Positions 1,280 through 44,319 of a stretch of 47,275 nucleotides of DNA are shown piece by piece (position 1 is the stretch's first letter; the number at the start of each line of letters is the position of its first letter). The notes below the pieces were generated by a model, which was given only the letters and a program-made list of their open reading frames with translations, ran no database searches and was not told the DNA's origin. Position numbers and translations under genes: made by a program. This DNA comes from Patescibacteria group bacterium. Its GTDB lineage: Bacteria; Patescibacteriota; Minisyncoccia; Phycocordibacterales; Phycocordibacteraceae. The DNA lies in the NCBI GenBank assembly GCA_029260935.1, contig JAJDCJ010000006.1, positions 1-47,275 on the forward strand, written 5' to 3'.

Positions 1280-1335
1280 GTTTCCTCTTTAAAACCTGTT
1301 TTTTTTCGCGTATGCTCAAGGAATAGTAACGGTAT

Positions 1336-2574
1336 ATGAACCCCCTCACTTTTACTATAGAAAAAGAATTTCCGAACGGTGCACGTGTCGGGAATATACA
1401 GACACCGCATGGGTCTTTTGAAACTCCTGCTTTTTGTACTGTGGGAACCAAAGGAACAGTAAAAGCGGTTTCTGTTGAACAACTACAGACATTGGCAAAA
1501 ACACAGGTGGTACTGGCAAATACATACCATTTATTTTTACAGCCGGGTGAAGGTATTGTGTCTAACGCCGGAGGACTCCACCAGTTTATGAATTGGCATG
1601 GGCCTTTAATCACTGACTCTGGTGGTTTTCAAGTATTTTCACTTGGCGCAGGATTTGGCAAGGACATTTCAAAATTTACTACTTCCCGGCCATCAAAAAA
1701 TATCTTGACGTCGGACGTCAAGACGGCACCGGCGGTATTTGATGAAAGTGTTTTAACGCAACACAGCAAGCTTGCCATCGTTGACGAGGAAGGTGTTTCT
1801 TTTACGTCGCATATTGACGGTACGTTGTATCGTTTTACCCCAGAGAGAAGCGTTGAAATACAGCATGCACTCGGCGCTGATATTTTCTTTGCGTTTGATG
1901 AGTGCACAAGCCCAGAGGACAGTAATTCTTATCAAGAAAAAGCAGGTAATAGAACACATCGTTGGGCTGAACGTTCTCTTAATACTCATCAAAATAATGT
2001 AGCCGCACGTAAAAATCAGGCGCTTTTTGGTGTGGTGCAGGGTGGCCGCGACCCAAAGTTGCGTGCGTGGAGTGCGGGAATAATTGGCGCTATGGATTTT
2101 GACGGGTTTGGTATCGGTGGGTCTTTTTCAAAGAAAGATTTAGGTGAAGCACTCACAGCAGGTATTGACCCTTTGCCTAAAGATAAGCCGCGGCACTTGC
2201 TTGGCATTGGTGAGCCAGAAGACATACTTCTTGGAGTGTCACATGGAATTGATATGTTTGATTGTGTACAGCCAACACGTATGGCACGTACGGGGACTCT
2301 CTATACCAAACGAGGTAAAATAAACTTATTGCGCAGAGAGTATATTCGCGATTTTACGCCACTTGATAAAGAGACTGGCGGGTATTCATCTGACAAGTAT
2401 ACTAAGGCATATCTCGCGCATCTATTTCGAGCAAAGGAAATGTTGGCAGCCACCATTGCGTCAATACACAACCTTTATTTTATAGAATCTCTTATGAGCG
2501 ATATCCGAGAGTCTATACGCGACAATCGTTTCAATGATTTTCGTACTGATTTCTTGCAAAAATATCAGCAGTAA
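1336..2574 (+). CDS. tgt: tRNA-guanine transglycosylase
   Basis: ANTYHL, TDSGGFQVFSL, FDEC, GVVQGG, DMFDCV motifs. Confidence 0.96.
   Translation: MNPLTFTIEKEFPNGARVGNIQTPHGSFETPAFCTVGTKGTVKAVSVEQLQTLAKTQVVLANTYHLFLQPGEGIVSNAGGLHQFMNWHGPLITDSGGFQVFSLGAGFGKDISKFTTSRPSKNILTSDVKTAPAVFDESVLTQHSKLAIVDEEGVSFTSHIDGTLYRFTPERSVEIQHALGADIFFAFDECTSPEDSNSYQEKAGNRTHRWAERSLNTHQNNVAARKNQALFGVVQGGRDPKLRAWSAGIIGAMDFDGFGIGGSFSKKDLGEALTAGIDPLPKDKPRHLLGIGEPEDILLGVSHGIDMFDCVQPTRMARTGTLYTKRGKINLLRREYIRDFTPLDKETGGYSSDKYTKAYLAHLFRAKEMLAATIASIHNLYFIESLMSDIRESIRDNRFNDFRTDFLQKYQQ
1703..1723. repeat. Palindrome family A, copy inside tgt
   Basis: TCTTGACGTC-G-GACGTCAAGA, perfect 10-bp arms; exact reverse complement of 6002-6022. 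Confidence 0.9.
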
Positions 2575-2588
2575 GGTATTACTGGCTT

Positions 2589-2750
2589 ATGGAAAAGCTA
2601 CTTCATTGCAGAGGAGGTGAGAGGGTAAAGGGCGATATGTGCGAGAGATGTGGTGGAACAGGGAAGAAAATCATTAAACTCAGCTCTATTAAGATAACAA
2701 TGCAGTGTGATGCCTGTAAAGGAAGCGGATATATTTTTCCAAAGTCATAA
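2589..2750 (+). CDS. 53-aa DnaJ-type zinc-finger microprotein (not in ORF track)
   Basis: Manual translation MEKLLHCRGGERVKGDMCERCGGTGKKIIKLSSIKITMQCDACKGSGYIFPKS; two CxxCxGxG motifs; fills the tgt-uvrB gap. Confidence 0.75.
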   Translation: MEKLLHCRGGERVKGDMCERCGGTGKKIIKLSSIKITMQCDACKGSGYIFPKS

Positions 2751-2752
2751 AT

Positions 2753-2761
2753 TGCTATAAT
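2753..2761 (+). promoter_or_regulatory. Extended -10 promoter, probably leaderless, for uvrB
   Basis: TG-C-TATAAT ending 6 nt before ATG 2768. Confidence 0.6.
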
Positions 2762-2767
2762 TTGTAG

Positions 2768-4822
2768 ATGGATACATTCACACTCCATTCTGAATACGCT
2801 CCTGCGGGTGACCAGCCGGAGGCTATTAAAGCCCTTCTCAAGGGTATGAAAAGAGGTGACAGACACCAGACGCTTTTGGGTGTGACCGGTTCAGGGAAGA
2901 CATTTACCGCAGCTAATATTATACAAAAGGTTCAGAAACCAACGTTAGTAATAGCTCACAACAAGACGCTCGCAGCGCAACTTACTCAGGAGTATAGAGA
3001 GTTTTTCCCGCATAATGCGGTGCATTACTTTGTGTCCTATTACGACTACTACCAGCCAGAGGCGTATGTGCCACACTCGGACACCTATATAGAAAAGGAA
3101 ACAAAGATTAACGCGGAAATTGACCGCTTGCGTCACGCATCAACACAGGCGCTATTAACGCGCAAGGATGTAATAATTGTGGCGACGGTCTCTTGTATTT
3201 ACGGTTTAGGATCTCCAGAGGAATACGAGAAAGTGCACAGGAAAATTGCTGTCGGTGATATGTTTGAGCGCGCTGAGTTTATTCGTTTTTTAGTTAACCT
3301 CAGATTTGAAAGAACGAACGCTGACTTAACACCCGGTACATTTCGCGCAGTAGGACCAGTGATTGAAGTTATGCCTGTTAATGAAACAGTGGTGTATAGA
3401 ATAGTACCCCGTGAATCCACCATAGCGTCAATTACTAGAATTGACGCAGTAACACGCGCAGTTATAAACCCAGTTGATGTGTTTTATCTTTTTCCCGCAA
3501 AACACTATGTGACGCCAGAGGGTGAGCGGGAAGCTGCGCTTAAAGATATTGAAAGTGAACTCAAAAAAAGACTAAAAGAATTAAAGAGTGAGGGTAAAAT
3601 TCTTGAGGAAGATAGATTAAAGCGTAGAACAAAATACGACGTGGCCCTCATTCGCGAAATTGGGTACACCAATGGCATTGAGAACTATTCTCGGCATTTT
3701 GACAGAAGAAAACCAGGGGAGCCACCGTTTACTCTACTTTCCTATTTTCCTCATACAAAAGACGGAAGTCCTGATTTTTTGACGATTATTGATGAATCAC
3801 ATGTTACCGTCCCACAGCTTTCGGCTATGTATGCAGGGGATCAGGCGCGAAAGAAAAACCTTATTGATTTTGGATTTCGTCTACCGTCAGCTGCTGATAA
3901 TCGCCCTTTGAAGTTTAGTGAGATTGAAGAGCGCCTTGGGCAGACCATGTATACCAGTGCAACACCCGGCACGTATGAGTTGGAACACTCAACACAAGTA
4001 GTTGAGCAGATTATCCGGCCTACTGGATTGATTGATCCGGAAATTATTATACGAAAAGTAACGGGCGATGATACCTATACGGGACAAGTAAAAGACTTTA
4101 TTAAAGAAACCGAGAAAGTGGTTAAAGGTGGTGGGCGTGTCTTGGTTACTACGCTCACTAAAAAAATGGCAGAAGACCTTGCAGAATTTCTTAAAAGTAA
4201 GGGAGTGAAGGCAGAGTATATTCACTCGGATGTTAAAACGATTGACCGTATTACCATCCTCACACAATTTAGAAGAGGGGAGTTTGACTGCTTGGTGGGA
4301 GTGAACTTACTTCGTGAAGGACTAGACTTGCCTGAAGTTGAACTCGTGGGCATACTGGACGCTGACAAAGAAGGGTTCTTAAGGAGCGAAACGTCGCTCA
4401 TTCAAACTATGGGGCGCGCTGCGCGTAACGTAAACGGGCGTGTCATTTTGTATGCCGACCGCATGACGGGATCTTTGGAGCGGGCAATTTCAGAAACGGA
4501 TCGTCGCCGAGAAATTCAAATGGCGTACAATAAAAAACACAACATAACACCGACGTCTATTAAGAAAAGTATAAAAGATATCACGGACTCTTTGAAAGAA
4601 GACCGCGACCGGGCAACAGCCATGGCACTTGCCGTTGACTTGGCAATAATTGAAAAGCCAAAGGAGTTGCGGAAACTCATTAAAGCTCGTAAGGATCAGA
4701 TGGAAGAGGCGGTGAAGGAGCTTGATTTTGAGACTGCGGCATTGCTACGAGATGAATTATATAAACTAGAAGAGAAATTACCGCACACAAAAACTCAGAA
4801 ACCTAAAAAAACTAGGAAATAA
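2768..4822 (+). CDS. uvrB: Excinuclease ABC subunit B
   Basis: GVTGSGKT, YYDYYQPEAY, DESH, GRAARN, C-terminal UVR coil. Confidence 0.98.
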   Translation: MDTFTLHSEYAPAGDQPEAIKALLKGMKRGDRHQTLLGVTGSGKTFTAANIIQKVQKPTLVIAHNKTLAAQLTQEYREFFPHNAVHYFVSYYDYYQPEAYVPHSDTYIEKETKINAEIDRLRHASTQALLTRKDVIIVATVSCIYGLGSPEEYEKVHRKIAVGDMFERAEFIRFLVNLRFERTNADLTPGTFRAVGPVIEVMPVNETVVYRIVPRESTIASITRIDAVTRAVINPVDVFYLFPAKHYVTPEGEREAALKDIESELKKRLKELKSEGKILEEDRLKRRTKYDVALIREIGYTNGIENYSRHFDRRKPGEPPFTLLSYFPHTKDGSPDFLTIIDESHVTVPQLSAMYAGDQARKKNLIDFGFRLPSAADNRPLKFSEIEERLGQTMYTSATPGTYELEHSTQVVEQIIRPTGLIDPEIIIRKVTGDDTYTGQVKDFIKETEKVVKGGGRVLVTTLTKKMAEDLAEFLKSKGVKAEYIHSDVKTIDRITILTQFRRGEFDCLVGVNLLREGLDLPEVELVGILDADKEGFLRSETSLIQTMGRAARNVNGRVILYADRMTGSLERAISETDRRREIQMAYNKKHNITPTSIKKSIKDITDSLKEDRDRATAMALAVDLAIIEKPKELRKLIKARKDQMEEAVKELDFETAALLRDELYKLEEKLPHTKTQKPKKTRK

Positions 4823-4827
4823 AACCC

Positions 4828-4855
4828 CACCTACTATGATTAATCATAGTAGGTG
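4828..4855. repeat. 28-bp perfect intergenic palindrome
   Basis: CACCTACTATGATT|AATCATAGTAGGTG with no loop and no U-tract. Confidence 0.85.
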
Positions 4856-4946
4856 AGAGTGTTTCTTTGGTAGATGAGTGGGTGTGCGGTATACTGTTTG
4901 GGTACACATACATGGTGCGCCGAGAGCGCGCTTATTTTGGTGTTAT

Positions 4947-7589
4947 ATGACAAAAAAGAAAAAAGATATAAAGGATATTGATGAGTCACCAGACTTGGGG
5001 AGTGAAAAAATCACCATTCGTGGCGCTAAAACGCACAACCTGAAGAATGTTTCGCTTGAAATACCACGGAACAAAATGGTGGTTTTTACTGGTTTGTCAG
5101 GATCAGGGAAATCTTCCCTTGCCTTTGACACTATTTTTGCCGAAGGCCAGCGCCGGTACGTGGAGTCGCTTTCCGCATACGCGCGACAGTTTTTAAATCA
5201 AATGCAGAAGCCGGACGTTGAGGAAATTACTGGCCTTTCGCCGGCTATTTCTATTGATCAGAAAAGTCGCTCTAATAACCCACGCTCAACCGTTGCCACC
5301 ATTACTGAAATTTATGACTACCTGCGTATTTTATATGCTCGTATTGGACAGCCCTACTGTTTAGACGACGACGTGCCGATTGAAAAACTCTCAAAGGAAG
5401 AGATTTTGAAAATTATTGTTAAATCAATTAAAGATACTGACTTGAAAAAAAATACTAAGAAAGTAAAAGGGGTTTCCTATACTGATGCAAAGGTAGGTAT
5501 TTTAAGTCCTATAGTGTTTGGTCGCAAAGGCGAATACTACCAACTACTCTATGACAAGTTAGGGAAAGGGTATGAACGCGTAGTGGTTGATGGCAAAGAG
5601 CATTCACTTCGCGAGCGTATCCAACTTGATAAAAATAAACGCCACGATATTGATATTTTAGTTGATGAGATTTTTATTAGTGAGTTTGAAACAAATAAGG
5701 CAGATGCGCATGAACGTCTGAGTGAGGCGATTGAAAGCGCGCTTCAAGAGTCAGATGGTTTGATAAAAATAAAAAGCCCGAACGGAGAGACACGACTTCT
5801 TTCGGCTAAGTTTATTTGCCCGAGCGACGGTTCGTCATTTCCTGAAGTTGAGCCACGACTGTTTTCGTTCAATAGCCCGTACGGAGCGTGTCCTGAGTGT
5901 AATGGACTTGGAACTGTAGGGTTCTTTAATCTTGATGAGTGTTCGGTATGTGAAGGAAAGCGCCTGAGGCCTGAGGCACTGCGTGTATTTTTGGGTGGAA
6001 ATCTTGACGTCCGACGTCAAGATTTGGGGAAGAATATTGTTGAGCTTACCAGTATGTCAATTGCTGATGCTCAAGATTTTATCCTCGGGCTGAAGCTTAC
6101 GAAGAAACAGCAAGAAATTTCAGACTCAATTCTCAGAGAAGTTCTCAACCGTCTTCAGTTTATGCTTGACGTGGGTATCGGCTACTTAACACTTAACCGA
6201 ACGGCGAACACTCTTTCAGGCGGCGAGGCACAGCGTATTCGCCTTGCAAGTCAGTTGGGTAGTGGGCTTGTGGGGGCTTTGTATGTATTGGACGAGCCGA
6301 CTATCGGGTTACATCAAAAAGATAATGCGCGTCTTATTCAGACACTTACCTCGCTCCGTGACCTCGGCAACACCATTATTGTGGTGGAACACGATGAAGA
6401 AACCATTTTCTCCTCTGACTTTATTGTTGATATCGGTCCAGGAGCCGGCGTGCACGGTGGTGATATTGTGGTGGCTGGTTGGCTTGATAAATTGCTTAGT
6501 GCAAAGATGAATAATTCTGGTTCAAAAACACTTTCTTATTTGCGCGGTGAAGAAGAAATTGAAATACCAGAGGAGCGCCGTACGAAACAGTTAGGTGAAT
6601 TAAAGGTGCGTGGTGGTGAAATATTTAACATTAAAAAAATGGATGTAGATATTCCGCTGGGGCAGTTTATTTCTATAACAGGTGTTTCAGGAAGCGGTAA
6701 ATCTTCTTTCGTATATGAGATTTTAAATAAAAACTTACGCGCCAAACTTGAGCGACGCTACCGTACGGCAAAAACCTACAATGTAAAAAGTTTTACTGGA
6801 GCGGAATACCTTTCGCGCATTGTGCTAATTGATCAGAGTGCTATTGGCCGTACTCCTCGCTCTAACCCAGCAACATATACGGGGGCGTTCACGCACATTC
6901 GTGATTTGTTTGCCGCTACCCCTGAGGCACGTGCACGTGGGTGGAAGCCAGGACGTTTTTCTTTTAACGTAAAAGGCGGACGGTGTGAGGCATGTCAGGG
7001 TAATGGTGTGCAGGCAGTTGAAATGCACTTTTTGCCGACAGTGTATGTAACGTGTGATGTATGTAACGGTGATCGGTTCATGAAAGAAACATTAGAGATT
7101 TTGTATAAAAAGAAAAACATTCACGATATTTTAACGATGACCGTTGAGGAGGCACTTGAGTTCTTTATGGACATTCCGGCGATTGCCGATCGTCTCCAGA
7201 GCTTGTTTGATGTGGGGCTTGGGTATTTGGAGTTGGGGCAAAGCGCGACCACTCTTTCAGGTGGGGAGGCACAGCGGGTGAAAATATCTTCAGAGCTCTA
7301 TAGACGTCACACTGAAAAAACGATATATCTTCTTGATGAACCAACGATTGGACTGCATTACGAGGATGTTAAGAAGTTAATTGAAATTCTCCAGTCGCTG
7401 GTACATAAAGGGAATACGGTGGTGGTTATTGAGCATAATATGGACCTTATTAAATCATCAGACCATATAATAGATATTGGACCTGAAGGGGGTGTTGGTG
7501 GTGGAAAGATTATAGCTCGCGGTACCCCTGAGGAGGTAGCACGCACTAAGGGTTCGTATACGGGAGAATATCTCAAAAAGATACTTTAG
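4947..7589 (+). CDS. uvrA: Excinuclease ABC subunit A
   Basis: Two ABC ATPase modules (GLSGSGKS and [16 protein letters not shown] twice), zinc-finger motifs; ATG 4947 preferred. Confidence 0.98.
5999..6025. repeat. Palindrome family A, in-frame copy inside uvrA
   Basis: AAATCTTGACGTC-C-GACGTCAAGATTT, 13-bp arms, 27 nt, encodes most of NLDVRRQDL. Confidence 0.9.
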
Positions 7590-7616
7590 TTTCTCCTCAC
7601 ACTTCAATCAAAATGC

Positions 7617-7651
7617 CCCCCATTACGGATGTCAGACATCCGTAATGGGGG
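7617..7651. repeat. Palindrome family B, intergenic copy (uvrA-uvrC)
   Basis: CCCCCATTACGGATGTC-A-GACATCCGTAATGGGGG, 17-bp perfect arms. Confidence 0.9.
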
Positions 7652-7710
7652 AAAGGATCATACACCGGAGGATATTCTAAGAAGGTGTTTTGATATAATG
7701 AGTTTTTAAA

Positions 7711-8940
7711 ATGAAAAAAGAAAACGTTGATTTTAAAAAATTACCAGATGCGCCAGGGGTGTACATTTTTCGTGGACCTAAAAAAGAAGTGTTGTATGTA
7801 GGCAAAGCAACTTCGCTGCGTGATCGTACCAAAAGTTATTTTGCACGTGACATTGCCGAGATACGAAGCCCTCTTATTGAAAAAATTGTCAGCGATGCGA
7901 TTGCTCTTGAAGTTGAGGAAACTGACTCGGTGTTAGAAGCTCTTATTTTAGAGGCGCACTATATTAAAAAATATGAACCAGTTGGCAATACTGACAATAA
8001 AGATAATAAAAGCTGGAACTATGTCGTTATTACCAACGAACAATTTCCGCGAGTGTTGATAGTTCGTGAACGTGAGCTTAGTAGTACGTTCTCAGAAAAG
8101 ACCGTCGCACAATTGTTTGGGCCATTTCCTTCTGCGGGAGTATTACGAGAGGCGTTAAAAATTATTCGAAAAATCTTTCCGTTTTTTGATACGAAATTTT
8201 CACTTTCGGGCGACTATTCATCCTCTCAAGAAAAAACTATACTTTTCAATCAATCAATCGGACTGTACCCGCGTGAGTTTGATGAGAGGGAGTATAAAAA
8301 AACTATTCGAGCGATTGTTGATATTTTTTCTGCAAAGAAGGTTACCTTGATACAGCGACTCAGTAGGGAAATGAACGCACACGCCAAGAAAAGAGAGTTT
8401 GAAGAGGCAGGGATTCTAAAAAAGAAAATTTTTGCACTCCAGCACATTCAAGACATTACTCTTATTAAAGACGACTTACGTACACCGACAACAGCTGATT
8501 TCCGTGTTGAAGGATATGATGTTGCACATATAAGTGGAGCTTCGCCTCGTGGGGTCATGACCGTTGTTGTAAATGGAGAACGTGTGCAAGACGAATATCG
8601 CTTGTTTACTATTCGTCATGCCACAGCAGGCGATGACTATGCGGCGCTTGATGAAGTACTGACGCGTCGCGCAAAGCACCGAGAGTGGGCGTACCCGCAA
8701 CTGGTTGTTATTGATGGCGGTAAGGGGCATTTAAATCGCGCAAAAAAAACGCTAAAAGACGCTGGTGTAATGGCAGAAGTAGTTTCAGTGGTAAAAGACG
8801 AGAAACATCGGCCACGTGAGGTTTTAGGAAAAAGCGCTACAGCACTCACCCATGAACGAGATATTCTTTTGGCAAACAGTGAAGCACACCGTTTTGCAAT
8901 TACCAAACACCGCAGTGCACTTAGAAAGAAAGGGTACTAA
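7711..8940 (+). CDS. uvrC: Excinuclease ABC subunit C, short form
   Basis: GIY-YIG start (PGVYIF...YVGKATSLR), UVR coil, RNase H-like domain (VEGYDVAH, VIDGGKG, EAHRFA). Confidence 0.93.
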   Translation: MKKENVDFKKLPDAPGVYIFRGPKKEVLYVGKATSLRDRTKSYFARDIAEIRSPLIEKIVSDAIALEVEETDSVLEALILEAHYIKKYEPVGNTDNKDNKSWNYVVITNEQFPRVLIVRERELSSTFSEKTVAQLFGPFPSAGVLREALKIIRKIFPFFDTKFSLSGDYSSSQEKTILFNQSIGLYPREFDEREYKKTIRAIVDIFSAKKVTLIQRLSREMNAHAKKREFEEAGILKKKIFALQHIQDITLIKDDLRTPTTADFRVEGYDVAHISGASPRGVMTVVVNGERVQDEYRLFTIRHATAGDDYAALDEVLTRRAKHREWAYPQLVVIDGGKGHLNRAKKTLKDAGVMAEVVSVVKDEKHRPREVLGKSATALTHERDILLANSEAHRFAITKHRSALRKKGY

Positions 8941-10551: not shown

Positions 10552-10571
10552 ATGTATCATATATGATACAT
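10552..10571. repeat. Palindrome family C copy 1
   Basis: ATGTATCATATATGATACAT, perfect 20-mer. Confidence 0.92.
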
Positions 10572-10652
10572 TTTACTTTTTATGTTTTTTAGAAACTAAA
10601 GGTATTTCTCTCTCGTCGTGTTTATGGTATACGGAAAACTGAAGTTAAGGGA

Positions 10653-10672
10653 ATGTATCATATATGATACAT
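10653..10672. repeat. Palindrome family C copy 2
   Basis: ATGTATCATATATGATACAT, perfect 20-mer. Confidence 0.92.
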
Positions 10673-10841
10673 TTTTATTTTTTTTTATGTTTTGTATGGT
10701 CTAGTAGAGTTTAATAGGATTTTAAGAGAGGGCGAGGCAAAGCCGTAGACACATCCTGTCAATGACGGGTGACCACAAAAATGTAGTTCAAAACACTGAG
10801 TAAAGATAACCGAATCCTGAGCGTGGTAGCATATACACTAT

Positions 10842-13259: not shown

Positions 13260-14961
13260 TGTAAAAGTTGCTGTAGCTACGCTGGTCTTTTTTGTTGGGT
13301 TCTTTACCTTTTCAGTTGGAACGGTACAGGCGGCTTCGGTGTTTGACATTGAGTTTCCCGTGAGTGAACTCGGCGGGTGTGCCGACCGCTTTGCCTGTAA
13401 AGCATTTTGTTCTAAAGCAAAAAATGAAAACGCATGCAGTGCGTTTGCGGAACAGTACGGATTGCAAAAAAGTTCAGTAACTACTGAAAAAAAATTCAAA
13501 CAAATTGAAGAAGACGGTGGCCCGGGTGGGTGTGCACTGGGCTCGGCAAACCCCGGACTTTCGTGTCGCGCCTACTGCGACAACACAACGAATATAGAGC
13601 AGTGTGTGAACTACGCCCGCCAGTACGATCTCTTGGACGAACGGGAACTTGAAGAAGCGGACAAAGTGCTCTCCGCGCTAAAGCGTGGTATTCAACTGCC
13701 ACCGCAGTGTACGAACGCGGCTTCGTGTAAAGCCACCTGCGAAAACCCTGCAGATGTTGACACCGCGCGCGCCTGTTTTGCTTTTGGAAAAGAAGCAGGT
13801 CTGCTTCCTCCGGGAGTTGACGATGCGCAGGCAGAAAAAGTATTTTTGTCTATTGAAAGAGGCACCGGCCCCTTTAAGTCGTTTGCGGAAATGCGACAGT
13901 GCGAAAACCCACCAAATGACGCGGTGTTGCAGAAGTGTATTGCTTTTGGCGTTGAGTCAGGATTTATTTCAGGAGAAGAAGCTGAAATAATCAAAAAAAC
14001 GGGAGGTAAAGGTCCCGGCGGGTGTACGGGCAGGGAACAGTGCGAAACGTATTGTCGGGCACACGGGGAAGAGTGTTTCCGCTTCGGCGCAGAGCATAAC
14101 CTTATTCGTGAAGAAGACCGACACCGCATACAGGAAGGTGTCTCTGGCGTACAGCGGGCCCTGCAAGAAGCTCCTCCGGAAATTGTGCAATGTATTAAAA
14201 ACGCCGTGCCGGACCTAGATCAAACGTTCGCAGGTCAGGGTTTTATTGGCCCTGAAATTGGAGAGAAAATGAGGCAATGTTTTGAGTCGCAGTTCGGCGG
14301 GCAAGGGGAACGTCACGATGGGTTTGAGTCTCGTCAGGGGCTTCCGCCTCCTCAAGGTCAGTTTGAATCAAACATACCACAACTACCTCCAGAGGCATTG
14401 CGCTGTATTGAAGGCAAGCTCGGCAAACCGTTTGCCGAGGTAGTGAAACAAGGACGTCCAACGAATGAAGTTGAAAATGTGATTCGCGGATGTATGGAAG
14501 CACTGCGTGGCAGTGAGCCACAGCCACCGCAAGACGGCACACATCCGCCGTTTGACCCAGCACGTGATTCAGCATTTCCTGTGCACGATGCAAACACATC
14601 AGCGCCGGAGCAATTTCAGCGCCCACCAACCCCAGAGGAGTTGCAAAAGTATCAGCAGTATCGTGAGCAAGGCGGTACCTACCCACCGGAAGGAACTTTC
14701 ACACAGCCTCCGAGTGATTTCAACACTGCACCACCTCCTACCGACCGCCGTGAATTGACTCCGGAAGAATACCAAAAGTATCAGCAACAAGGTGGTACCT
14801 ATCCTTCAGGTGATGCGTATCCGCCACCACCGACTGATGCACCCCCTCCACCAACCGAAATCACTCCAACTTCGTCTGGTCCTTCCGGGTTCTTTTCGCG
14901 CATCGGCTCTGGCTTCAATTCACTCACCGCGAGTGTGTTGAATGCATTCTTTGGAAGATAG
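13240..14961 (+). CDS. Secreted cysteine-rich repeat protein with Pro-rich tail
   Basis: Signal peptide (TVQA/ASV), five GGC-x-C-xxx-C-x-C-like repeats (one with only two Cys), 22 Cys by manual count, Pro/Gln tandem repeat, amphipathic C-terminus. Confidence 0.8.
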   Translation: MLIHLNSVKVAVATLVFFVGFFTFSVGTVQAASVFDIEFPVSELGGCADRFACKAFCSKAKNENACSAFAEQYGLQKSSVTTEKKFKQIEEDGGPGGCALGSANPGLSCRAYCDNTTNIEQCVNYARQYDLLDERELEEADKVLSALKRGIQLPPQCTNAASCKATCENPADVDTARACFAFGKEAGLLPPGVDDAQAEKVFLSIERGTGPFKSFAEMRQCENPPNDAVLQKCIAFGVESGFISGEEAEIIKKTGGKGPGGCTGREQCETYCRAHGEECFRFGAEHNLIREEDRHRIQEGVSGVQRALQEAPPEIVQCIKNAVPDLDQTFAGQGFIGPEIGEKMRQCFESQFGGQGERHDGFESRQGLPPPQGQFESNIPQLPPEALRCIEGKLGKPFAEVVKQGRPTNEVENVIRGCMEALRGSEPQPPQDGTHPPFDPARDSAFPVHDANTSAPEQFQRPPTPEELQKYQQYREQGGTYPPEGTFTQPPSDFNTAPPPTDRRELTPEEYQKYQQQGGTYPSGDAYPPPPTDAPPPPTEITPTSSGPSGFFSRIGSGFNSLTASVLNAFFGR

Positions 14962-24724: not shown

Positions 24725-25549
24725 ATGCGTATTGTAAAAGGAGATGGTTCACGTGAGGAATTTGATATTGAAAAACTAGAGCGGTCAATGCTACGCTCGG
24801 GAGCGCCCAAAGAAGCAGTGCATGCACTTGCCCTTAAAGTCACCGCAACTATTCGCGACGGCATGACCACCAGTGAAATTTATAGAAGCGCGTTTCGTCA
24901 ACTAAAAAAAGAAGAAAGCACCTTTGCCGCACGCTATTCTATGCGACGAGCAATACTTGAAATGGGCCCTACAGGGTTTCCATTTGAAGATTACTTTTGT
25001 GCTCTTATGAGGGCAAAAGGGTATCAGGCAAAAGTGAGACAAATTATCACCGGCACATGCACTCACCACGAGGTTGATGTTGTATTGGAAAAAGATGGAC
25101 TCACGATTGGTGCTGAGTTGAAATTTCATAATACGCCAGGATTTAAAACTGATTTAAAGACAGCACTCTACGTACGCGCACGTTTTTGGGATATTGAGTA
25201 TGCTATTGAAGACCAAAGCAAAAAAAGTAAAGTACAAGAAGGATGGCTCGTTACTAATACAAAATTTACAAGCCAGGCAATAGAGTATGGTGAGTGTGCA
25301 GGGATTAAATTACTTGGGTGGGGACATCCGACTGACTATAACCTTGCTGATATTGTGAGAGAGACAGGGCTGTATCCTATTACAGTGCTTACTACTTTAA
25401 CTAAAAAGGAACAGCGACAACTCCTTCAAAACCAAATAACAGTGTGTAAGGATATTCATAATAATCCAGATCTTCTTGCAAAAGCAGGTATTGCCAAGCG
25501 AAAACATCGTGAAATTATTGAGGAGAGTTTACGAATTTGTGGATCGTAA
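24725..25549 (+). CDS. ATP-cone plus Mrr-like PD-(D/E)XK nuclease domain protein
   Basis: IVKGDGSREEFD ATP-cone; GFPFE...HEVDV...ELKFH...LVTNTKFT. Confidence 0.8.
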   Translation: MRIVKGDGSREEFDIEKLERSMLRSGAPKEAVHALALKVTATIRDGMTTSEIYRSAFRQLKKEESTFAARYSMRRAILEMGPTGFPFEDYFCALMRAKGYQAKVRQIITGTCTHHEVDVVLEKDGLTIGAELKFHNTPGFKTDLKTALYVRARFWDIEYAIEDQSKKSKVQEGWLVTNTKFTSQAIEYGECAGIKLLGWGHPTDYNLADIVRETGLYPITVLTTLTKKEQRQLLQNQITVCKDIHNNPDLLAKAGIAKRKHREIIEESLRICGS

Positions 25550-25566
25550 AATGGTATACTTTTGAA

Positions 25567-26415
25567 ATGTCAGGATATTACAAACCAGATCGGAGAAAAG
25601 ACTGGAACTATGGTGGCCCTCGTTGGCGTCTCTCTCGGTCAAAAATAGACCTTTTTAAGGAGTGCGCACGATGTTTTTATATTGACAATAAGTTAGGAAC
25701 GGCACGTCCACCGGGATATCCATTTAATCTCAACTCAGCAGTTGATACTCTTTTAAAAAAAGAATTTGATATTCACCGCGCAAAAAAGGAGGCGCATCCG
25801 TTGATGGTTGAATACGGTATTGATGCCATTCCATTTCAACACCCTGATTTAGATACGTGGCGTGAGAACTTCAAAGGTGTGCAAACCGTGCACACACCAA
25901 CAGGTTTTACTGTTTCAGGTGCCGTTGACGACGTATGGATAAACCCCGAAGGGGAACTTATCGTCGTTGACTATAAAGCAACAAGCAAAAACGGCGAAGT
26001 GAGTTTGGATGCTGATTGGCAGATAGGGTACAAAAGACAAATGGAGGTGTACCAATGGTTACTTAGACAAAATGGTTTTAAAGTTTCAGATACCGGCTAC
26101 TTTGTGTATGTAAACGGAAGAACAGATGTTGATACGTTTGATGCAAAACTAGAGTTTGATATGAAAATACTGCCATACAAAGGAGACGATAGCTGGGTTG
26201 AAGAGACATTACGTGATATTAAAAAGACGCTTGAGAGCGAAGCGATACCTACCTCGGGCGAAGATTGCGACTACTGCAAATACAGAGAGTTTACTGGAAA
26301 AAAATTACGCGCACAACATTTAGGACATAGTGAAAATTCTGCAGAAGATGTATCCAAGGGAAAGCATAAAAATAAAACAGAGGCAAAAAATGATCAAGAA
26401 TCACTTTTTACCTAA
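25567..26415 (+). CDS. PD-(D/E)XK nuclease (Cas4/AddB-like)
   Basis: LSRSKI...CARCF, GAVDD, VVDYKAT, QMEVY, CDYC. Confidence 0.85.
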   Translation: MSGYYKPDRRKDWNYGGPRWRLSRSKIDLFKECARCFYIDNKLGTARPPGYPFNLNSAVDTLLKKEFDIHRAKKEAHPLMVEYGIDAIPFQHPDLDTWRENFKGVQTVHTPTGFTVSGAVDDVWINPEGELIVVDYKATSKNGEVSLDADWQIGYKRQMEVYQWLLRQNGFKVSDTGYFVYVNGRTDVDTFDAKLEFDMKILPYKGDDSWVEETLRDIKKTLESEAIPTSGEDCDYCKYREFTGKKLRAQHLGHSENSAEDVSKGKHKNKTEAKNDQESLFT

Positions 26416-26451: not shown

Positions 26452-26477
26452 AAAATGTATCATATATGATACATTTT
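26452..26477. repeat. Palindrome family C copy 3, at the TrpR-like gene stop
   Basis: AAAATGTATCATATATGATACATTTT, 26-bp perfect. Confidence 0.92.
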
Positions 26478-26905
26478 TATTTTTTCTTTGGTTTGGGTTC
26501 AGGGAAGAAAAGGAAGTGTAGAGGATATTTTTTCTTGAGTGCGGCATACCCAAATGGATTTCTTTTTCGCTCAGCTTGTAGTGCTCGTTTATCCATTTCT
26601 TTTTCTAATCCCTGTATTACTTGTTCGTATCCAGGCATTTGGTCATTGAGCCATTTTTCAACGCGCCAAATAGTGTTTCGGCTAACTTTTAATTTTGCGC
26701 CGATTTCAACTCTTGTATGATTGCTGAGAAGGAGGCGTGCTATCCATATGCGTCTACCGAGCATAATGCGCTCGCTAGGGGTTAATAAGTCCCGTAGGAA
26801 CAATTTCGCTGCTGCTCGCCCACGGATGTGTGCTGCTGATGTGTATAGCATGTCCAGAGTGTGCATTTTCTCTTTTTCTGTTAAGTCGCTTAATTTTTTC
26901 TTCAT
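26477..26905 (-). CDS. TrpR-like (YerC/YecD family) HTH protein
   Basis: FLRDLLTPSERIMLGRRIWIARLL...EIGAKLKVSRNTIWRV matches the TrpR/YerC pattern. Confidence 0.85.
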   Translation of the reverse strand: MKKKLSDLTEKEKMHTLDMLYTSAAHIRGRAAAKLFLRDLLTPSERIMLGRRIWIARLLLSNHTRVEIGAKLKVSRNTIWRVEKWLNDQMPGYEQVIQGLEKEMDKRALQAERKRNPFGYAALKKKYPLHFLFFPEPKPKKK

Positions 26906-26939
26906 ATCAAGAATGTATCATATATGATACATTCTTGAT
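26906..26939. promoter_or_regulatory. Palindrome family C copy 4, abutting the TrpR-like start codon (candidate operator)
   Basis: ATCAAGAATGTATCATATATGATACATTCTTGAT, 34-bp perfect palindrome. Confidence 0.8.
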
Positions 26940-27065: not shown

Positions 27066-27085
27066 ATGTATCATATATGATACAT
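27066..27085. repeat. Palindrome family C copy 5
   Basis: ATGTATCATATATGATACAT in the divergent intergenic region. Confidence 0.92.
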
Positions 27086-27132: not shown

Positions 27133-27393
27133 ATGAAAAAACAGACGATGTTTCGTAAGCGAGTTGAAGAGGTGGTGAGATCAATCAAAAAAGGAGAAAC
27201 GAGAAGCTATGGTGAAGTTGCGACTGCTGTTGGCAGTCCGGGTGCGGCGCGTGCAGTGGGCACGGTGATGCGCACGAACAAAGATACAAGTGTGCCGTGC
27301 CACCGCGTAGTCGCTAAAAATGGCATCGGTGGTTACAATGGCCTTTGCGGTGAAAAAGAAGCTCTGCTTCGCAAGGAAGGCGCACTCAAGTAA
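27133..27393 (+). CDS. Single-domain methylated-DNA--protein-cysteine methyltransferase (MGMT/Ogt family)
   Basis: SYGEVA, ARAVG, PCHRVV active site. Confidence 0.9.
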   Translation: MKKQTMFRKRVEEVVRSIKKGETRSYGEVATAVGSPGAARAVGTVMRTNKDTSVPCHRVVAKNGIGGYNGLCGEKEALLRKEGALK

Positions 27394-43320: not shown

Positions 43321-44319
43321 ATGCGCGGAGAAAAACTGAAAAAGAAACGTTCCCACTCTATTGAAGAGGAGCGCGGTATTACGGTAGTTCCTGATAATAA
43401 AGAAGGCGCTAATGAGGGTCCAACGGTGATATTTCCAGGGCTCGGTGAGACAGTAAAAAATGGAGGTGCATTTAGCACTCCTGTTAAAGTATATGCTGAA
43501 GCGTCAGGGGAAAAGGTGTTGGCACCGCAAGACCCTAGGGCAAAAGAAGCATTGGCCGACATAGAAGTTACTCAAAGACTTTTTGAAAGAAAAGAACATG
43601 CAAGGAACTATTTTAAAGACACAGTTGACTCCACTCTGCTAAAGCACGTACTTGACACTATTCCTCTTGGTCAGTTTAGAAAGGCGCTTAATGCCATGGA
43701 ATTTCTCATACCTCATCTAGGAACAGATGAGAAACCACACACTATTCCAAAGGTAATCGCTCACTCACAGGGTGGCGTTGTTGCACCACTGTGTGCACTT
43801 TTTTGGCCAGAATATTTTGAAGGAGCGCACTTAGTGTTACTAAACCCCGCCGGGTTTACTGCCGCGTCAAGGTCTAAAGAAAGGCAGGAACAGTCACGCG
43901 CAGTTAAGGCGTCTGAGAAAGTAAAACGTTCACGGCTTGAAATACTAAAAAATATGTTTTCTGAGACCCCTTCGTTTTTGAGATATTTCGGTTCTCTTAT
44001 TGCCTCGGGTAAAATAGGTGCACTCTTGGATGCACTGTATGATAATTTTCTCAGTGGACGTGCATTCCAAAGACTTGATGACGCCTATGAACTTCTGCAG
44101 TATGACGCAACCCCACTCATGCAACTTCTTGTACAGTCAGGAAATAAAGTAACTGTTGCCTATGGTGAAAAAGATATTCTCTTCCCTAGAGATTTGTTTG
44201 AAAGTCAGATAGACACACTTGCGGATGTTGAATTTAAAAAAATAAAGGGAGGACATTTTGAAATAATAGAAAATCCCGAAGAATCAGCCGAAACCCTCAA
44301 AGAAATCTTCAAAAAGTAG
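43321..44319 (+). CDS. Alpha/beta hydrolase fold protein
   Basis: FPG, AHSQGG nucleophile elbow, GEKD acid, GGH His. Confidence 0.75.
   Translation: MRGEKLKKKRSHSIEEERGITVVPDNKEGANEGPTVIFPGLGETVKNGGAFSTPVKVYAEASGEKVLAPQDPRAKEALADIEVTQRLFERKEHARNYFKDTVDSTLLKHVLDTIPLGQFRKALNAMEFLIPHLGTDEKPHTIPKVIAHSQGGVVAPLCALFWPEYFEGAHLVLLNPAGFTAASRSKERQEQSRAVKASEKVKRSRLEILKNMFSETPSFLRYFGSLIASGKIGALLDALYDNFLSGRAFQRLDDAYELLQYDATPLMQLLVQSGNKVTVAYGEKDILFPRDLFESQIDTLADVEFKKIKGGHFEIIENPEESAETLKEIFKK

Follow-up and report, generated by a model that had tools for sequence, protein, structure and literature searches.

Two palindromes in tgt and uvrA

The stretch of DNA analysed here (hereafter the window) comprises 47,275 nt of contig JAJDCJ010000006.1 from a Patescibacteria group bacterium (assembly GCA_029260935.1), and this paper concerns two perfect palindromes that lie within two of its genes. 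The genes are tgt, encoding queuine tRNA-ribosyltransferase (1336-2574, plus strand), and uvrA (4878-7589, plus strand), with uvrB (2768-4822) between them and uvrC (7711-8940) beyond. Tgt matches Pfam family PF01702 at 425 bits and has orthologues in 36 of 41 genomes; UvrA carries the UvrA_inter and ABC domains and has orthologues in all 41. The genome, labelled G000 in what follows, is a metagenome-assembled genome of 694,962 bp in 21 contigs with 43.8% G+C, and the window is its contig C17.

The palindrome in tgt (1703-1723) is 21 nt long and reads TCTTGACGTCGGACGTCAAGA, i.e., TCTTGACGTC-G-GACGTCAAGA; that in uvrA (5999-6025) is 27 nt long and reads AAATCTTGACGTCCGACGTCAAGATTT, i.e., AAATCTTGACGTC-C-GACGTCAAGATTT. 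They share the core GACGTC-S-GACGTC and belong to the same subfamily of it, here called 'TCTT'. The inner 21 nt of the uvrA copy (6002-6022, TCTTGACGTCCGACGTCAAGA) are the exact reverse complement of the tgt copy, from which they differ in the central base only, the C of uvrA being complementary to the G of tgt. A scan that tolerated up to three mismatches placed the 21-mer at these two sites of the window and no others; the chance expectation is 0.01, and none of 100 dinucleotide shuffles gave two. The pair had been pointed out in an initial annotation made from the window alone, and all of its coordinates, including the extension of the uvrA arms to 5999-6025, were verified. Both copies are in frame (peptides ILTSDVKT in Tgt and NLDVRRQDL in UvrA), but their reading frames differ. 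On either strand one frame of the 21-mer contains TGA and the other two are open, and because two of the three frames are open the tgt and uvrA copies can yield two different peptides. Since the same 21-mer is read in different frames of two unrelated genes, the conserved thing is the DNA and not the peptide, as that annotation had held.

Symmetric sequences might also be made during assembly or sequencing, as fold-back chimeras in a metagenome-assembled genome. The genome is indeed a metagenome assembly of 21 contigs, and a low-depth contig of sequencing run X2 stops at 1706, within the tgt palindrome. However, a 9,359-nt contig from a second assembler, probably of the source sample (hence not independent biology), matches 1323-7700 without any difference; the same palindrome families occur in other genomes of the genus, including one assembled as a single contig; two of those genomes have an orthologous copy in common; and the reading frames are open through all coding copies. 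An artefact is therefore so improbable as to be negligible.

Palindromes across the genome

The 21-mer occurs five times in the genome, and its 13-nt core, GACGTC-N-GACGTC, 21 times; a reversed-pattern control for the core occurs nowhere. A count of perfect palindromes whose arms reach 10 nt and whose spacer is at most 1 nt gave 114, as against 1-3 in three Markov-3 simulations; lowering the arm minimum to 8 nt (spacer 0-1 nt) gave 145 in the genome and 29-37 in the simulations. Within the 506 coding sequences of at least 150 aa, we found 30 palindromes of the longer-armed class and 12 copies of the core, versus 0-5 and 0-1, respectively, in 20 synonymous-codon shuffles; by the codon-preserving count that the initial annotation had proposed, both are thus commoner than shuffling produces. 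The families have one build in common: the centre is constant, a short ring around it is specific to the subfamily, and the outer arms are specific to the copy, each copy being still perfectly symmetric.

The genome is about 89% coding. By position, 53 of the 114 palindromes are intergenic, 12 straddle the end of an open reading frame (ORF) and 49 lie within ORFs, where called ORFs of at least 70 aa, some of them doubtful, were counted; 35 lie within ORFs of at least 100 aa, and 30 within 28 ORFs of at least 150 aa. Coding copies did not have shorter arms than intergenic ones (median 14 vs. 15, p 0.36). The 78 copies that lie between genes of at least 100 aa are distributed as 44 tandem, 24 convergent and 10 divergent, against 375, 74 and 70 among background spacers; convergent gene ends thus hold an excess of intergenic copies, which is consistent with a terminator-like side role.

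A possible explanation for such enrichment is selection for protein-binding sites, i.e., operators of dimeric regulators or restriction-modification sites, in the manner of HIP1. HIP1 of cyanobacteria is an 8-mer palindrome present in thousands of copies, is not known to have a transposase and is tolerated in coding regions in several frames. The palindromes described here resemble it in being short, over-represented and present in coding regions in several frames, but they have 13-nt cores in longer hairpins, are few in copy and are linked to transposase genes of the Y1 type (see below). The core does hold two 6-bp palindromes, GACGTC being what we take to be the AatII site, and one family of this genome, ATGTATCATATATGATACAT, does look like an operator (six copies, two of them flanking a gene of the Trp-repressor family). 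For the core, however, 12 of the 17 copies whose arms reach 10 nt lie within ORFs, in unrelated genes and in two frames; positions are not orthologous between species; the tandem, convergent and divergent counts given above reveal no consistent position relative to gene starts; and no regulator or methyltransferase was linked to it, no systematic search having been made for one. We consider this explanation highly improbable.

Y1 transposase genes and their palindromes

The genome encodes eight proteins of PF01797 (Y1_Tnp), all of them above the Pfam cut-off (32-51 bits vs. 23) and about 215-235 aa long, and the 'REP-associated tyrosine transposase' (RAYT; REP, repetitive extragenic palindrome) is the best and only NCBIfam match for each. 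The residues N79-H80-x-H82 and Y140, the tyrosine in Y(I/V)HxNP, are invariant in all 30 Y1 sequences aligned. An AlphaFold2 model of the transposase has a predicted local distance difference test (pLDDT) score of 87.7 and a predicted template-modelling score of 0.83, and in a fold search its top match in PDB was 4ER8_A (E 4.5e-5, template-modelling score 0.63 by target), a structure in which the REP-associated transposase of E. coli is complexed with a REP hairpin; the TnpA proteins of ISDra2 and IS608 followed. The modelled fold is thus RAYT-like; sequence search of PDB gave a weak signal (ISDra2 TnpA at E 0.08).

Seven of the eight genes each have their own palindrome family, beside the gene or within it. 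The GACGTC-S-GACGTC core accompanies the gene at C19:14120-14803, which lies outside the window, with copies upstream (14830-14856), inside the gene and in frame (14625-14651) and downstream (14063-14109 and 14009-14033). Palindrome ATTACGGAAGTCTGACTTCCGTAAT stands at both ends of C21:929-1618, ATATGGACACGGCGTGTCCATAT at both ends of C20:5293-5937 and GTGCAACACTCGGTGTTGCAC at both ends of C19:28258-28911; the Y1 genes on C16, C7 and C8 have their own families upstream and/or inside, and the gene on C2 has no palindrome. When the count was restricted to arms of 10 nt or more lying at most 80 nt from a gene end, palindromes were present at both ends of 4 of the 8 Y1 genes versus 6 of 498 other genes (Fisher p 5e-6). 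Seven families touching a Y1 gene account for 52 of the 114 palindromes. There is one Y1 gene per family, and in comparisons made against the protein of C19:14120-14803 only (hereafter the C19 protein), the other seven proteins are 25-63% identical to it; six further paralogues, each tied to a different palindrome family, thus share a 0.7-Mb genome with the gene of the core. The copies flanking the C19 gene are of the form CTGCG-GACGTC..., and because they have this CTGCG shell, the case for mobilisation of 'TCTT' copies in trans by the C19 enzyme, which we think may occur, rests on the shared 13-nt core.

Many Y1 genes hold an in-frame copy of their own palindrome at one fixed loop just before the HUH strand (C19:14625-14651, C7:25310-25338 and C8:42734-42758 in this genome; loci L129, L130, L135-L137 and L139-L141). 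From gene to gene, the internal palindrome varies in step with the flanking copies, and the loop that holds it has low pLDDT in the fold model. It may be an autoregulatory site.

Distribution in the genus and phylum

Genes of PF01797 occur in all 33 genomes of the genus and in 80 of 201 Patescibacteria genomes sampled. Of the 30 Y1 loci compared in 30 genomes, all but two show a perfect palindrome beside or within the gene, and 17 have two or more copies of one family; of the two loci without a palindrome, one is at a contig end. The clade of the Y1 protein tracks the architecture of the palindrome: where the protein shares at least 45% identity with the C19 protein, the palindromes are odd (spacer 1 or 3, often ATG...CAT), and where it shares 28-38%, they are even and of the form TGTGC...CCGG...GCACA. 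The core itself follows its Y1 gene across the genus. Orthologues of the C19 gene (67% identity) were found only in G041 and G008, both with the core inside and just downstream, and the core occurs 21 times in G000, 17 in G008, 10 in G041, 7 in G017 and 0-2 times in each of the other 29 genomes. The complete genome G041 (721,362 bp, a single contig) contains 53 long palindromes in families of its own.

A Y1 gene with a hairpin at each end is also the layout of IS200, and the palindromes could accordingly be full insertion sequences (IS) of IS200/IS605 type with miniature derivatives (palindrome-associated transposable elements), i.e., selfish elements and not a vertically kept partnership of repeat and gene; the two views differ in lifestyle, not in chemistry. 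The likeness extends to the Y1/HUH chemistry, to single-stranded hairpin substrates (predicted for the present system) and to the fold matches with IS608 and ISDra2 TnpA. Moreover, the gene linked to the GACGTC core does not occupy the same locus in G000 as in G041, the C21 unit of G000 lies between genes that are adjacent in G041 and is absent there, and canonical IS200 transposases of about 150 aa likewise occur in the phylum. Other observations tell against this view: no Y1 gene of G000 is present in more than one near-identical copy, each family having a single gene and the paralogues being as diverged as noted above; two of the three Y1 genes of G041 are syntenic with their G000 orthologues; at least one Y1 gene is kept in every genome of the genus; the hairpins show perfect symmetry; and the protein of known structure that fits best is a RAYT, not an IS transposase. 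On balance, an IS200/IS605 lifestyle is very unlikely.

Host proteins and their loops

In Tgt, the initial annotation placed the palindrome in a long insert between VFSL and DEEGV, a segment said there to have only a few residues in E. coli TGT. This insert was not made by the palindrome: a segment of about 40 residues from FQVFSL to DEEGV is present in all 30 relatives and in all 120 database homologues aligned, and only some 6-7 hypervariable codons go with the palindrome. The segment is an insert relative to the Pfam TGT profile, which matches the protein in two stretches, the better one spanning residues 143-411 against profile positions 89-356; this would fit an insert before residue 143. 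The palindrome sits in the hypervariable part of the loop, after SKF. In G008, the closest relative for Tgt (72% identity), there is no palindrome at the loop, which is about 6 residues shorter. Even in a set of 5.8 billion proteins, identity to Tgt does not exceed 74%, so that no conspecific genome is at hand.

The corresponding loop of UvrA, LRVFLGG-GKNIV, also varies in length: it is absent in several order-level outgroups, has 5 residues in most congeners and reaches about 40 in some. No palindrome with arms of at least 7 nt occurs at this site in 28 of 29 relatives' loci, the exception (L058) having TATTTATT..AATAAATA. The statement that removal of the 27 nt restores a compact uvrA therefore applies relative to the order-level outgroups (LGGKNIV) but not to the congeners, in which the loop already has at least 5 residues, and the insert is not one of nine residues: the loop of G000 is 4 residues (12 nt) longer than that of its closest relative, G003 (85% identity).

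Every coding copy leaves its reading frame open. Besides Tgt and UvrA, proteins with in-frame copies include Dus, Sua5/YrdC, TsaD, RsmA, a small methyltransferase, two tRNA synthetases, an HhH-GPD glycosylase, TatD, a kinase-like protein, a protein of the metallo-beta-lactamase fold, a surface protein, the product of a giant ORF and the transposases themselves. We claim no preference for particular host genes, as such genes make up a large share of so small a genome.

The same loops also receive an element unlike the palindromes described here. It is about 45 nt long, has an inverted repeat CACTTTCTCGAC...GTCGAAAGTGA around AAGGAGGGAAC, encodes the peptides RQGGN and RRGNG, and was seen in the Tgt loop of G004, G024 and G020 (L007, L017 and L018) and in the UvrA loop of G022 (L044). 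Peptides of SQGGN/SRGGN type were found repeatedly in several database homologues of Tgt.

Change of the palindromes over time

Four congeners (G000, G003, G001 and G013) each have a different perfect palindrome in the Tgt loop, and the loop of G041 holds a decayed-looking remnant, ACAGCGGACGCC. Many of the 120 Tgt homologues have peptides of the form DV-G-x5-(I/M)-P, the translation of ATGT...ACAT palindromes, the palindromes being deduced from the peptide where DNA was not at hand. In three of the 120 (P0003, P0016 and P0035), VTSDVT(R/S) stands where G000 has LTSDVK; judged from the peptides, this would be the pattern expected of a symmetric change from TTG...CAA to GTG...CAC.

Positions turn over between species. 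Mapping onto G041 succeeded for 36 of 113 sites of G000. Some of the mapped copies are clean in-frame insertions relative to G041: one in rsmA adds 57 nt, and one in the Dus gene (C2:18817-18864) adds 51 nt and consists of two directly adjoining palindromes from different families, the second being a copy of the core with one mismatch. Other mapped copies replace a segment of similar length (e.g., three copies that encode TTMINHS), and in the uvrA of G017 the same 21-mer occurs at another site (near residue 175) with the length of the gene unchanged. What the initial annotation had called a second family of coding-region-invading palindromes is thus a genuine family with coding copies, but 'invading' does not always mean net insertion. 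One copy is orthologous and identical in G041 and G008, though 4 of 44 flanking bases differ.

In G008, a 33-nt palindrome, CTCAACTAAGGACGTCGGACGTCCTTAGTTGAG, overlaps the stop codon of tgt (C9, locus L002, about 2713-2745). Its left outer arm, CTCAACTAAG, is the 3' end of tgt with the stop codon, and its right arm is the reverse complement of the left, which suggests that outer arms can arise by copying of the host flank.

Observations of this kind could be explained without a transposase if palindromes arose in place, when during replication a nascent strand changes template at a short inverted repeat and copies itself, so that the adjoining sequence becomes a perfect inverted repeat (quasi-palindrome or template-switch mutation), a mechanism that has been published as far as the excerpted parts of PMC5453318 and PMC8604942 describe it. 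It would account for the perfect symmetry of all copies, including their copy-specific outer arms; for the coding copies that replace orthologous segments of equal length, that of G017 uvrA among them; for the mirrored tgt end of G008, where other species have YL(N/V/A)-stop-like ends; and for a site at C16 30528, where conserved sequence holds a chance palindrome, made longer by two synonymous changes. What template switching cannot do is put the same 13-21 nt at 21 unlinked sites, when a 13-mer is expected less than once in 0.7 Mb and the reversed control gave none. It also leaves unexplained why each family is located at its own Y1 gene and why the presence of the core tracks one Y1 orthologue. 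As the sole cause it is contradicted by the core counts and the Y1 linkage, and we judge it quite unlikely; more probably it assists, extending or repairing arms once a copy has been inserted.

A flank shared by G000 tgt and G017 uvrA, AAAAAATA...CGGCA, was weighed as the mark of a longer mobile unit and set aside, because it is too short and is displaced by 3 nt; on its left side it agrees with the subfamily consensus AATATCTT.

Discussion

The palindromes in tgt and uvrA are most likely intragenic, in-frame REP-like copies of a REP/RAYT-type system ('REPtron') whose cognate Y1 gene is not in the window. If the system works as E. coli TnpA-REP and IS200/IS605 do, the palindrome would fold into a hairpin on single-stranded DNA and be recognised by its cognate Y1 enzyme, and the repeat would then be cut or copied and become joined, at another place, to single-stranded target DNA. 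Selection would presumably remove copies that break genes, leaving most between genes and many at gene 3' ends, and coding copies would persist only if the frame is kept, no stop codon is introduced and the loop tolerates extra residues, as may hold for the hypervariable loop of Tgt, the loop of UvrA and the low-confidence loop in the transposase fold model. Template switching may additionally extend the arms. The activity of the enzyme, its mobilisation of the repeats (including movement of the 'TCTT' subfamily in trans by the C19 enzyme), the single-stranded route and the time at which the two copies arrived are all things that we infer.

Several observations weigh against this interpretation. 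Aligning orthologues, as the initial annotation had advised, located the variable loops and yielded counterparts without a palindrome at both sites (L058 excepted for uvrA), but no empty site, junction, exact insertion boundary, target motif or target duplication could be defined or found at either locus in relatives that are 51-85% identical; it is because of this divergence, and because both sites lie in length-variable loops, that exact boundaries cannot be set. Contigs from three runs of one study contained neither a joint bypassing 1703-1723 or 5999-6025 nor a variant lacking either palindrome, although, with X1 perhaps the source, X2 containing the same strain at a depth of 2-4 and X3 next to none of it, the lack of variants there says nothing about the absence of variation. 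That several coding copies (in G017 uvrA and in G000) bring no net gain in length is unexpected for simple insertion. No 'TCTT' shell flanks a Y1 gene in any genome examined. All eight Y1 proteins score below the NCBIfam cut-off for RAYT equivalogs (NF047646; 34-62 bits vs. 80), and by sequence they appear to be distant relatives of the curated family and not equivalogs. Finally, 14 of the 114 palindromes are not REP-like (six resemble operators of the TrpR family and the others are ordinary terminators), and the repeats differ in form from classical REPs: each is one perfect hairpin, 20-55 nt long and with almost no loop (spacers of 0-3 nt), where classical REPs are imperfect, 20-40 bp long and often arranged as inverted doublets of about 100 bp; they lack an unpaired GTAG or CGTC tag; and each family has only 2-21 copies.

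A RAYT-like enzyme might also copy only half of the hairpin and rebuild the other arm by fold-back (rolling-hairpin-like) synthesis, which we regard as unlikely, if less so than the alternatives weighed above. If true, every new copy would be perfect, changes would spread symmetrically and host flanks would become inverted duplications, of which the tgt stop codon of G008 would be an example. It would also represent a mode of transposition with inverted target duplication, one that steadily supplies core enzymes with short in-frame peptides in their loops, and the cognate copy at the fixed loop inside many transposase genes would serve the enzyme as a regulatory site of its own.

The parallels with REP/RAYT systems (E. 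coli TnpA-REP, 4ER8; the REP doublets forming hairpins, or REPINs, of Pseudomonas) are several: dispersed short palindromes, one HUH/Y1 gene per flanking family, repeat-specific pairs that coexist, hairpin arms that co-vary, clusters, a location at gene 3' ends, and 4ER8 as the best fold match. Many of the present families share a paired ATG...CAT foot, and some hold GTAG paired with CTAC. Symmetric variation fits the compensatory changes across REPIN hairpins, which PMC3116915, in the part that treats them, reports to be common. The differences, beyond those of form, lie in numbers and location: the present families have few copies and not hundreds, and 7-8 pairs are packed into 0.7 Mb; and up to 49 of 114 copies are within ORFs of at least 70 aa, in contrast to the REPINs of about 100 bp with single-copy RAYTs that a preprint (10.1101/2021.07.10.451892) describes, in the relevant passages, as almost exclusively extragenic.

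Rickettsia palindromic elements (RPE) are palindromic selfish DNA found in frame in conserved protein genes of a small genome, RPE-1 being about 100-150 bp long. In-frame palindromic DNA in conserved genes of a small genome is thus common to both, but the elements described here are 21-55 nt long and Y1-linked. The same elements are mentioned in the available sections of Di Nocera, De Gregorio and Rocco (2013; PMC3733652), which describe REPtrons, repeat-specific RAYTs and intragenic REPs, the last being in frame and thought to occupy linkers or loops. The intragenic hosts named in those sections include uvrA (both genes of Opitutus terrae, and that of Thioalkalivibrio), uvrB, tRNA synthetases, tRNA-modifying enzymes and pseudouridine synthases; CGTC-tagged repeats, among them the short RPE-4 and RPE-6, are given there as having no dedicated transposase; and the eight phyla listed do not include Patescibacteria. 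The present copies are alike in being in frame and in having uvrA, tRNA synthetases and tRNA-modifying enzymes as hosts; relative to what those sections report, they differ in repeat architecture and phylum, and a cognate transposase is identified here for an intragenic family.

Intragenic REPs, in uvrA among other genes, were thus already known from that account, and no new principle is involved. What is new is the phylum, the perfect, nearly loop-free and tagless hairpins, the 7-8 pairs in 0.7 Mb, the low copy numbers and the cognate copy inside transposase genes; our literature search found no report linking RAYT, REP or IS200 with Patescibacteria, Parcubacteria, Kaiserbacteria or Saccharibacteria. 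If our interpretation is correct, there is a concrete cause for many of the short odd insertions in conserved Patescibacteria proteins, the Tgt loop with its palindrome-type peptides in many homologues being one instance, and REP/RAYT-type systems would thrive, at high density, in 0.7-Mb genomes that are thought to be streamlined. Tiny perfect hairpins with one enzyme each would also make a compact system for studying how Y1 enzymes read hairpins. For annotation, such peptides should be recognised as repeat-encoded, and contigs may break at the palindromes.

Other palindromes and neighbouring genes

Between uvrB and uvrA lies an intergenic, perfect palindrome of another family (4828-4855, 28 nt, CACCTACTATGATTAATCATAGTAGGTG). 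That family, CTACTATGATTAATCATAGTAG, has 11 copies in the genome, and no cognate Y1 gene was found for it in the assembly. One of its three frames is open, and the peptide T-M-I-N-H-S recurs in three unrelated proteins: TsaD, the HhH-GPD glycosylase and the metallo-beta-lactamase-fold protein (C4:6220, C4:36433 and C16:18451).

Just 3' of uvrA, a perfect 35-nt palindrome, CCCCCATTACGGATGTC-A-GACATCCGTAATGGGGG (7617-7651), belongs to the family ATTACGGA[AT]GTC, whose Y1 gene is that at C21:929-1618 of this genome; the orthologous spot in G041 has an ordinary terminator-like hairpin. A second member of this family (ATTACGGAAGTC), 33 nt long and perfect, lies at 32510-32542, in frame (IHYGSQTSVMD) in the gene for alanyl-tRNA synthetase (31280-33172), and the G041 gene is 5 codons shorter at this site.

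Palindromes cluster at C19 13.5-14.9 kb, C20 5.2-9.9 kb and C7 9.5-9.8 kb. On C16, two TGTGCGAATCCCGGGATTCGCACA copies (43777-43818 and 44090-44123) are 313 nt apart with no Y1 gene between them; palindromes of this type flank Y1 genes in relatives (L145, L146 and L152), and the pair may be the remnant of a lost transposase.

The six copies of the ATGTATCATATATGATACAT family, none of which is wholly within an ORF, are probably the operator set of a Trp-repressor-family regulator and not a mobile repeat. Those in the window lie at 26452-26477, 26906-26939, 10552-10571, 10652-10673 and 27066-27085, the first two flanking the regulator gene (26477-26905, minus strand, 142 aa; PF01371 at 50 bits). 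This gene is adjoined by one for a PD-(D/E)XK / Cas4-like nuclease (25537-26415), and 27133-27393 encodes a protein with the DNA-binding domain of 6-O-methylguanine-DNA methyltransferase.

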